Positions 11,444 to 13,048 of a stretch of 32,882 bases of DNA are shown piece after piece (within the stretch, counting starts at the first letter, position 1; every line of letters starts with the position of its first letter). The notes under the pieces are model-generated. The model searched no databases, was not told the origin of the DNA, and saw nothing but the letters and a program-made list of their open reading frames with translations. The position numbers and the translations under genes are program-made. The stretch is from a virus. Its lineage: Duplodnaviria > Heunggongvirae > Uroviricota > Caudoviricetes. The stretch lies in the IMG/VR virus record IMGVR_UViG_637000265_000004. One strand, written 5' to 3'.

Positions 11444-13048
11444 ATGATTCAGCTATCCAGTAGTCACAAACTTCCAGCAGTCTACTATCTCTACCAGCGT
11501 AACGGCGTCTACTACTTCCGTCTTAGGGTCAGACAATCAAACAATGATAGAATGACCTCAATATCATTACGGACCAAGGATAGACGCACCGCTATGGCTT
11601 ACTCAAGGCACATAAAGGCAGCACTCAAGGCAATACACGCAGACAGACCCAACGCTACCTATGAGGAAATGAGGGAACACCTTAAGGACATCGCTGAGTG
11701 TGAACTGTCTATGGGCCGTTCAGATCTCTTTGAGCCTGACATGAGGGATATCTACCGGGACCAATACGGAGAACTTGGTGAGAGCCTTACCGATGCTCTG
11801 GCTAGTGAGCCGCTAAGCATTGACCAGCATCGTTACATCAATGAGGCCCTGAAGGTGCTAAAAGCCTGTATGAGGCGTATCGAAGCGGGAGACAGTCAGC
11901 CTCTGATAGATTACGTCGATCTTTTTAATGATATTGATAGGCAAGATAACCAAGCAGACTCTGTGTCCCTATCTGTTAATGCTCCAGAAGTAAAACCAGA
12001 AGTTACGCCTAGCATTACCATAGCGAGCCTCTTTGAGCAATACGAAGCGGAGAACTATCAGAACTGGAAGCCTGCAACCTTAAGGGAAAACAAGGCGTCA
12101 CACGCTGCGTTAATCGAAATATTCGACCATCTGGGTCTCAATGCAGACGCTAACAGGGCTGACATGCTTAGGGTCCGTGATGTGCTCCAGCAGTTACCTA
12201 GGAACCGTAAGCAGCGCTTCAAGGATGTCCCACTTGCTGACCTGTTGAGCCGTGAAGATAAGACAGATTGTCTGGATGTCGTTACCATCAACAACAAGTA
12301 TCTTATTAAGATGGCTGCTGTCTTTAGGTGGGTTGTGCGCAATGACTTGATTAAAAAGAACATGACTGAGGGTCTGGAGCTTAAAGTCCCTCAGCGTAAA
12401 GCCTCAGGGGCCCGTAACGCCTTCTCTACGGAGCAGGTGGGGCAACTACTGGTCGCAGCTAAGGCATACTCTCAGAAGACCTCTGGTAAGCCGTATCATT
12501 ATTATGTTACCGCCTTGGCTGCTATCACTGGGGCGAGACTCAATGAAATAGCCCAACTACAGGTCAAAGACGTCAGGACCACTGAGGCGGGAACCGTTTA
12601 TATTCATATCAATGAAGACGATAGTAGTCTACCCGGTAAGAGCATCAAGAACGCTCATAGTGACCGCTGTGTGCCTCTGGTCGATGGGGCCTATGGTTTT
12701 ATATTGGCTGACTTTATGGCGCTTGTAGAGACCCGTAGAGGCGCTGACGGTGATGACGCTATGGTGTTCGATGGTCTGCGTCTCATGAAGAACGGTTACG
12801 GTGAGCAGGTGAGTAAATGGTTTAATCGGACGTTGTTGCCTAAAGTCCTCGTAGACCGTAGCGGCTTAGCGTTTCACTCGTTTAGACATACAGTTGCGAC
12901 CCAGTTAAAACAACATGGGGTCGAGTTGGCGTATGCACAGGCGATCATGGGGCATAGTTCAGGGTCTATTACTTACGACCGTTATGCTAAAGAGGTCGAG
13001 GTTGATAGGCTGGTCAATGTGATGGCTGATGTTTATAAGGAGACCTAG
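11444..13048 (+). CDS. Tyrosine recombinase / integrase, 534 aa
   Basis: C-terminal catalytic signatures TGARLNEI (box I Arg), HSFRHTVATQL (H-x-x-R) and GHSSGSITYDRY (Tyr nucleophile); lies 3' of the tRNA cluster. Confidence 0.85.
   Translation: MIQLSSSHKLPAVYYLYQRNGVYYFRLRVRQSNNDRMTSISLRTKDRRTAMAYSRHIKAALKAIHADRPNATYEEMREHLKDIAECELSMGRSDLFEPDMRDIYRDQYGELGESLTDALASEPLSIDQHRYINEALKVLKACMRRIEAGDSQPLIDYVDLFNDIDRQDNQADSVSLSVNAPEVKPEVTPSITIASLFEQYEAENYQNWKPATLRENKASHAALIEIFDHLGLNADANRADMLRVRDVLQQLPRNRKQRFKDVPLADLLSREDKTDCLDVVTINNKYLIKMAAVFRWVVRNDLIKKNMTEGLELKVPQRKASGARNAFSTEQVGQLLVAAKAYSQKTSGKPYHYYVTALAAITGARLNEIAQLQVKDVRTTEAGTVYIHINEDDSSLPGKSIKNAHSDRCVPLVDGAYGFILADFMALVETRRGADGDDAMVFDGLRLMKNGYGEQVSKWFNRTLLPKVLVDRSGLAFHSFRHTVATQLKQHGVELAYAQAIMGHSSGSITYDRYAKEVEVDRLVNVMADVYKET

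Follow-up and report, generated by a model that had tools for sequence, protein, structure and literature searches.

A probable heterobivalent tyrosine integrase marks a small tRNA-Gly island lodged in a Shigella flexneri prophage

The arm-binding domain of the "complex" tyrosine integrases has a canonical fold of three strands and one helix (PMC8138268). Lambda Int and the integrases of Tn916 and Tn1549 join such an N-terminal domain to a core-binding and catalytic fold with R-K-H-R-H-Y chemistry, and their attachment (att) sites carry paired repeats in either arm. On the other hand, P4-type and IntSXT integrases insert their elements at the 3' end of a tRNA gene and regenerate the tRNA end from attP. 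Chen and Schneider reportedly described, in Nucleic Acids Research in 2006, enterobacterial "tandem T7-like promoter" islands. These islands are said to span 4-13 kb and to encode a tyrosine integrase, behind which two or three T7-like promoters follow in tandem; reportedly they have end repeats of 17-24 nt, lack an RNA polymerase gene and were proposed to be satellites of T7-group phages. Other small, integrase-bearing elements with Bro-N, Rha or KilA-N genes beside int are the HE-PICIs, which nest inside prophages (PMC10111431), and the PICMIs, satellites of virulent phages with a minimal gene content (PMC10803314). Here, we describe an integrase that shares traits with each of these systems. 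Its gene is an uninterrupted open reading frame (ORF) of 534 amino acids (aa) at 11444-13048, on the plus strand of a 32,882-nt stretch of caudoviral DNA (IMG/VR record IMGVR_UViG_637000265_000004), hereafter called the window. With a probability of about 0.8, it is an intact heterobivalent integrase of the DUF6538 family, belonging to a small tRNA-Gly island that sits here in the tRNA-Gly(UCC) gene of a lambdoid prophage. This reading draws on the ORF and its domains, on an architecture common to the family, on the insertion junction, on the att and arm repeats and on the promoters downstream of int; from these we infer DNA binding by the N-terminus, a role for a helical module and a possible response to phage.

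The window matches Shigella flexneri 5 str. 8401 (CP000266.1) at 100% identity over 21.6 kb, and the integrase ORF is likewise 100% identical. The nearest cluster built at 90% identity, labelled "site-specific integrase [Shigella flexneri]", is 99% identical to the protein and holds 769 S. flexneri sequences; in the assembly collection, 42 indexed blocks contain the exact protein sequence. Pfam PF00589 (Phage_integrase) matches residues 329-516 (E 4.4e-18) and the PHROG integrase profile phrog_1 matches residues 184-517. Because R365, K402, H478, R481, H504 and Y514 are all invariant in an alignment of 19 sequences that reaches down to 24% identity, the protein looks like a catalytically intact tyrosine recombinase. 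From 134 diverse homologues, AlphaFold2 produced a model with clear domain boundaries and a mean pLDDT of 90. Searching with the whole model, Foldseek retrieved Tn1549 Int (best match in the Protein Data Bank (PDB), E 1.5e-7), Cre and XerH over ~370 aligned columns, which cover the core-binding and catalytic part only. A PDB search with the sequence returned XerA, XerD and Tn1549 Int; lambda Int was not among the matches.

The gene belongs to a separate small tRNA-Gly island and not to the surrounding prophage, since comparison with island-free phages puts the junction precisely at the CCA end and since orthologues at glyU lie in att-bounded islands. In the window, a cluster of four phage tRNA genes (Met-CAU, Arg-UCU, Thr-UGU and Gly-UCC; 11019-11329) lies downstream of the prophage Q antiterminator gene, and int starts 115 nt past the last of them. 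Related intact phages have the tRNA cluster followed by the lysis cassette, and in phi467 stx genes precede the cluster. The island-free lambdoid phages phi467 and vB_EcoS-689R5 are identical to the window until the CCA end at 11329. Past this point they continue into holin, lysozyme and Rz, whereas the window continues into sequence found beside the chromosomal glyU of E. coli, where a 95%-identical orthologue directly follows this tRNA-Gly-CCC gene. The glyU and phage tRNA-Gly genes differ along most of their length, and the same island sequence begins in both at the base after CCA. In addition, the window retains the phage-specific T-stem (CCCGCT) upstream of GCCCGCTCCA, the only part of the tRNA end common to glyU and the phage tRNA, which places the probable crossover in the final ~10 nt of the tRNA. 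At least one other lambdoid background (locus L006) shows the same junction of tRNA and island. The frame implicit in the original prediction, that of an integrase of a phage or of a P4/PICI-type satellite, thus gives way to a separate small island in a prophage tRNA gene.

Orthologues occur in more than 20 species at chromosomal tRNA-Gly genes, usually glyU, within islands of 4-8 kb. Complete islands are bounded by a direct repeat of the tRNA 3' end, TTCCCTTC[G/A]CCCGCTCCA, and measure 4264-7619 bp from att to att: 4264 bp in E. coli E110019, 4276 bp in E. coli FT130, 4312 bp in Yersinia enterocolitica, 4436 bp in Plesiomonas, ~6400 bp in Klebsiella and Serratia, and 5452-7619 bp in Pectobacterium, Morganella, Citrobacter, Buttiauxella, Proteus, Enterobacter and another E. 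coli. The copy in E. coli 21AR0133 spans 7342 bp, including an IS5. In this strain, a second island stands in tandem with the first and shares its glyU att repeat (L001 22388-32221, L010 1-2549); it encodes a different integrase of 650 aa, has two copies of the arm repeat TCCTACAA and adjoins a remnant of the ETT2 type III secretion system.

The arms of the islands contain putative binding sites for the integrase. A comparison of seven complete islands, which represent five genera (E. coli, Yersinia, Klebsiella, Serratia and Plesiomonas), revealed direct TGTAACC repeats, 12 nt apart and in the same orientation, in both arms. Counted from the left end, the left-arm copies lie at about +76/+88 in most of the seven islands, two of which have a single copy. 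Counted from the right end, the right-arm pair lies at about -99/-87 in 6/7 islands, the Serratia island having a single copy at -89. Elsewhere in the islands, TGTAACC is found once or twice in all. In the window, the two copies of the left arm lie at 11405-11411 and 11417-11423 and form the only such tandem pair in the 32.9 kb. By position and conservation, these pairs are candidate arm-type integrase sites. CCTAC repeats were also considered as arm sites and rejected, as the right arm concerned belongs to the tandem island with the 650-aa integrase.

Upstream of the core-binding domain, the model distinguishes three parts. Residues 12-65 form strands 13-19, 22-31 and 34-41, followed by a helix (47-64) packed on the strands, all at pLDDT 80-90, and a separate model of residues 1-199 alone has the same secondary structure as the full-length model. 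This segment is basic (12 K/R vs 2 D/E) and resembles DUF6538 (PF20172). Its charge, its three-strand-plus-helix fold and the matching candidate arm sites support its prediction as an arm-binding domain that would bind DNA. Next comes a module of four helices (73-89, 98-121, 126-148 and 152-171; pLDDT 80-96), which has generic helical matches only in the PDB and no specific structural or sequence relative. Since it is also strongly acidic (25 D/E vs 12 K/R over residues 66-171), it is unlikely to bind DNA directly; it may rather serve as a spacer, in oligomerisation or in regulation. Hence, the additional DNA-binding or regulatory function once suggested for the N-terminal extension finds support, as far as DNA binding goes, in residues 12-65 and is improbable in that form for residues 66-171, for which regulation is a conjecture.

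The third part, a linker of 21 aa rich in Pro, Ser and Val, contains 3 D/E. Within it, residues 173-182 have a pLDDT below 50, and the linker is the sole internal stretch of low confidence in the model. Its length differs among close orthologues through PEVK-type repeats, as expected for a flexible tether. A longer segment, DSVSLSVNAPEVKPEVTPSITIASLFEQYEAENYQ (residues 173-207), had been described as an acidic and proline-rich linker; its first ~20 residues are unstructured, and the linker proper is Pro-rich but not notably acidic, the acidity being located in residues 66-171. An "SLSV" motif at residues 175-180 (11966-11983), in the variable disordered linker, recurs in homologues of ~30% identity. 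The core-binding domain that follows is ordinary, with ~130 aa and with Phage_int_SAM_5 or Phage_int_M matches in relatives.

The integrase can now be compared with the known enzymes. It shares with lambda, Tn916 and Tn1549 Int the active-site chemistry, the core-binding and catalytic fold, a predicted three-strand-plus-helix domain at the N-terminus and, as candidates, paired arm repeats. In contrast to them, it contains the acidic four-helix module of ~105 aa and the 20-aa linker, so that the core-binding domain starts at ~193. In lambda Int, this domain starts at ~75. The N-terminal domain also differs in kind, being of the DUF6538 family and not of the lambda, Tn916 or DUF4102 families: the protein has no Pfam match to a lambda-type arm-binding domain and none to DUF4102 (PF13356) at E<=1, nor was any other P4-type match obtained, and DUF4102 is not in the 25 commonest of the 46 families found across 90 relatives. 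The islands integrate at a tRNA 3' end and regenerate it as P4-type and IntSXT elements do, with an integrase of different N-terminal architecture. The P4 integrase is ~100 aa shorter than the protein studied here. What is truly extra relative to lambda- and P4-type integrases amounts to about 125 aa, that is, the ~105-aa helical module and the ~20-aa linker.

This length is a property of the family. An exhaustive search of 1.84 billion cluster representatives (E<=1e-3) returned 8176 relatives, many of which align from residue ~14 to the C-terminus; a second search, started from a diverse alignment, gave essentially the same close orthologues. These have ~520-550 aa and come from Escherichia, Klebsiella, Citrobacter, Serratia, Yersinia, Raoultella, Lonsdalea and Plesiomonas. 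An E. coli orthologue is longer (544 aa) through small indels, which lie in the linker, in the core-binding domain and at the C-terminus. For the pre-core-binding, core-binding and catalytic regions, 134 family representatives give median lengths of 193, 133 and 202 aa, as compared to 195, 133 and 206 aa here, and the first of these regions ranges from 79 to 273 aa. In a set of 90 representatives, DUF6538 was detected in 58/90 (best E 5e-20) and PF00589 in 90/90; many close orthologues also have a precomputed PF20172 match. Within the subfamily of 26-38% identity, the helical module keeps its length and its motifs (PLS..Q and GD..PL), and it is conserved down to about 28% identity. Our literature searches found no description of this integrase and no paper mentioning DUF6538. 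Within this large integrase family, which is catalogued but unstudied, the protein is nothing out of the ordinary; its long N-terminus is the rule there and is unusual against lambda and P4 integrases alone.

The original prediction of an "unusually long" integrase was therefore correct in substance but overstated, and its interpretation is partly supported. The protein does exceed lambda and P4 integrases in length and is typical of its own family. The catalytic domain does occupy the last ~200 residues (329-530). The ~300 aa assigned to the N-terminus, however, include the ordinary core-binding domain (193-320), which leaves 195 aa upstream. Among homologues, the N-terminal region indeed belongs to a common, family-wide architecture of arm-binding type, but its length is not the ordinary one.

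Two perfect T7 RNA polymerase promoters lie 120 nt apart and ~90-210 nt past the int stop codon, where 0 are expected by chance. In E. coli and in further S. flexneri strains, the orthologous integrase gene is followed by the same T7 promoters. We surveyed 1.5 kb downstream of int, on the same strand, in 20 species-level genomes or loci fetched with the integrase, and found one or more T7-group promoter cores in 17/20. Altogether, 39 cores were found in 27.9 kb downstream of int, as compared to 6 in the other 530 kb (both strands). The upstream specificity region of the promoters varies with the host genus. K. pneumoniae ATCC 13883 has one perfect K11 promoter and one perfect T7 promoter, T3-like variants are found in Serratia, Citrobacter and Kluyvera, and other variants in Pectobacterium and Proteus. 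T7 RNA polymerase has 883 aa; the window contains no ORF above 551 aa, i.e. no phage RNA polymerase gene.

Downstream of the promoters, a non-coding block is nearly invariant in S. flexneri, E. coli, Yersinia enterocolitica and Plesiomonas, where Int is 72-82% identical, and an exact 35-mer of it is common to E. coli, Yersinia and Plesiomonas. The block matches no Rfam family; it may be transcribed by a phage polymerase or act as a site in cis. The short-repeat arrays that follow loosely recall the arrays at the ends of the T7 genome. When the non-coding region was compared with phage genomes by blastn, the only match was promoter-sized and lay in the T7-like Salmonella phage Vi06, and the idea that the repeats mimic the T7 genome ends or a T7 origin is unsupported speculation.

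As noted above, the tandem T7-like promoter islands reportedly share with the window an integrase gene followed by tandem T7 promoters without a polymerase gene. End repeats, said to flank those islands, occur at both ends in the relatives studied here; the window has the left copy only, after truncation by the insertion sequence (IS) IS1. The window copy further differs from those islands in its location in a prophage tRNA-Gly gene and in this truncation. To our knowledge, the account of Chen and Schneider includes neither the integrase domain architecture, nor the TGTAACC arm-site candidates, nor the PD-T7-4/RAZR cargo described below. Our literature searches found no later paper on tandem T7-like promoter islands.

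Table 1 Features of the window around the integrase gene
Feature	Position	Strand	Basis or remark
Phage-borne tRNA-Gly(UCC)	11255..11329	+	ARAGORN; last of the Met-Arg-Thr-Gly cluster
attL core, tRNA-Gly(UCC) 3' end, TTCCCGCTGCCCGCTCCA	11312-11329	+	Left attachment junction of the island
Island arm (P' arm), att core to int start	11330..11443	+	Two direct TGTAACC repeats
Int residues 1-10, disordered			AlphaFold2 model
Int residues 12-65, predicted arm-binding-type domain	11477..11638	+	DUF6538 match, fold, basic composition
Int residues 66-171, acidic four-helix module	11639..11956	+	AlphaFold2 model, composition, conservation
Int residues 172-192, Pro/Ser/Val-rich flexible linker	11957..12019	+	Without secondary structure, pLDDT 45-65
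Int residues 193-320, core-binding (SAM-like) helical domain	12020..12403	+	phrog_1, Foldseek, Pfam matches of relatives
Int residues 329-530, catalytic domain	12428..13033	+	PF00589, invariant catalytic residues
Two 120-nt tandem repeats	13061..13300	+	One perfect T7 promoter each
Perfect T7 RNA polymerase class III promoters TAATACGACTCACTATAGGGAGA	13136-13158, 13256-13278	+	Point away from int
Non-coding block, ~170 nt	13305..13475	+	Alignment; nearly invariant between genera; downstream of promoters
AT-rich CTTAAAG/TTAAAG-type repeat arrays	13473-13608	+	
Pyrimidine-rich CTCTAGGGTCTC/CTCTATGGCCC repeat arrays	13661-13803	+	
Rha-family gene, 5' fragment	14043..14198	+	Phage_pRha, E 2.6e-9; cut by IS1 from ~14199
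IS1 copies	14199-14966 and 23443-24210		Repeat 14199-14498 = 23443-23742
Other IS pairs	14967/31445 and 17961/27366		
sitABCD	19757-22352	-	

Besides int, the islands comprise ~1 kb of non-coding repeats and a gene for a Rha or KilA-N protein; many of them carry a DUF4145 gene, and some add DUF6971 and a ~375-aa protein without assigned function. In the islands of Klebsiella, Serratia, Yersinia and Plesiomonas (L015 and L019-L022; in K. pneumoniae, L017 7610-8251), the DUF4145 gene overlaps the stop codon of int. The DUF4145 protein of the Klebsiella island was identified as PADLOC PD-T7-4 (E 2e-101). PD-T7-4 is the RNase RAZR, which acts by abortive infection and is activated by the portal proteins of T7 and T3 (PMC13017515), and its gene often overlaps an integrase gene (PMC9519451). 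The PD-T7-4/DUF4145 gene is absent from the Shigella and E. coli islands that we examined.

On these grounds, the following course of events can be proposed. The island has entered the tRNA-Gly(UCC) gene of a degraded lambdoid prophage, between Q with the tRNA genes and the lysis genes that are now lost. The core-binding and catalytic domains would recombine the tRNA-Gly 3' end, while the basic N-terminal domain would bind the paired TGTAACC arm sites that lie ~75-100 bp away from the core in both directions. For their part, the helical module and the linker could give reach, mediate assembly or regulation, or both. Because promoters for T7-group RNA polymerases lie downstream of int, infection by a T7-like phage most likely switches the island on.

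Several observations weigh against this reading. The DUF6538 match on residues 15-63 (25.2 bits, E 1.3e-5) stays below the gathering cut-off of 27 bits, so that the domain search and structure prediction called for by the original prediction yielded a sub-threshold family match and a predicted fold. For neither the N-terminal domain nor the helical module did they yield a specific PDB match: a profile of the N-terminus had no match among PDB sequences, and fold searches of the PDB with the N-terminal model gave nothing specific. In an hhalign comparison, residues 11-64 align in register with residues 11-56 of lambda Int, at E=0.1 only; we treat this alignment as no more than a lead. The pTM of the integrase model (0.67) makes the relative placement of the domains uncertain. 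In a further difference from the lambda, Tn916 and Tn1549 systems, no excisionase (Xis/AlpA) was recognised among the island proteins scanned with Pfam and PADLOC or in precomputed Pfam lists, small unannotated ORFs of 62-76 aa lying outside the scan. Finally, the window contains no attR or other second att copy, whether the full tRNA 3' end or the 10-nt core is used as the query. This absence fits the truncation of the island by IS1, which has removed its right part and left the integrase stranded, the gene being possibly a functional relic.

This last point leads to the alternative that survives best, namely that the gene is a decaying relic in Shigella, its ORF intact by chance and its protein inactive since IS1 removed the right end; we consider this possible, though doubtful. 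In addition to the missing attR and to the Rha gene cut by IS1, it could invoke the state of the prophage: several IS copies, IS1 included, have rearranged it, it no longer has its lysis and head genes, and the sequence now runs on into tail-fibre genes, sitABCD and a fragment of a phage integrase. However, the ORF is full length, every catalytic residue is present, and the protein persists in the S. flexneri cluster and in the assembly blocks mentioned above. Moreover, the alternative bears on present activity and not on what the protein is.

A different role has been considered for the acidic module, that of a regulatory sensor coupling integrase activity to infection by T7-group phages. The module may, for example, bind a phage protein or mask the basic arm-binding domain until triggered. 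We regard this as a long shot. If true, the sensor module would replace the excisionase that the islands appear to lack, and the island would be a phage-triggered satellite with a self-contained integrase switch.

It is very unlikely that the island is a PICI-type or "helper-embedded" satellite of the host lambdoid prophage with no tie to T7-group phages. Its position at the head of the prophage late operon would suit such a satellite, and the Rha/KilA-N genes (Bro-N network) after int recall the organisation of PICIs (PMC10111431). However, the usual site of these islands is chromosomal glyU and not a prophage; no AlpA, primase/rep, or captured late or packaging genes were detected in the complete relatives of 4.3-6.4 kb; the promoters are of T7, K11 and T3 type and change with the host genus; and the cargo includes the anti-T7 gene PD-T7-4. 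The islands also differ from HE-PICIs and PICMIs. Their integrase is of another clade, their target is the tRNA-Gly 3' end instead of prophage late genes or fis, AlpA and primase are lacking, and promoters for phage RNA polymerases stand in place of helper-derepression circuitry, satellite behaviour being here a candidate property.

The original prediction had also left the start codon in doubt. That the long N-terminus is an annotation artefact, with translation starting at an internal Met codon (37, 51, 76, 90 or 100) and a real protein of ~440-500 aa, is highly improbable. The Shine-Dalgarno sequence before ATG 11444 is indeed weak (AGGG, 11 nt upstream), but none of the internal Met codons has a better ribosome-binding site. 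ATG 11444 is the sole ATG, GTG or TTG upstream of residues 12-65, which are conserved in homologues down to ~25% identity, fold with confidence and match DUF6538; a start at any internal Met would remove conserved, confidently folded sequence. The RefSeq start of the E. coli orthologue is the same ATG. These observations support ATG 11444 and speak against an internal start. Least credible of all is the view that the gene is the integrase, or a spare one, of the surrounding lambdoid prophage, with a phage-specific N-terminal adaptation: it does lie inside the prophage, 615 nt downstream of Q and beside phage tRNAs, but island-free relatives run from the same tRNA-Gly straight into lysis genes, the sequence from the CCA end on is that of the E. 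coli glyU island, orthologues in more than 20 species have islands with att repeats of their own, and a separate fragment of a prophage-type integrase lies beyond sitABCD.

Overall, our preferred reading, a probably heterobivalent integrase of a tRNA-Gly island, draws its main value from the island context, the long N-terminus alone being a modest finding. The analysis contributes a defined att core, candidate arm sites and a domain map, besides the phage-polymerase promoters, the nesting of the island within a tRNA gene of the prophage and the connection with PD-T7-4/RAZR. The Shigella copy indicates that a phage-borne tRNA gene can be the landing site of a second mobile element. More broadly, the integrase flags widespread 4-8 kb tRNA-Gly islands of Enterobacterales with T7-group promoters, many of them with PD-T7-4/RAZR, and these islands are candidate satellites of virulent T7-like phages or candidate carriers of defences that such phages would trigger.

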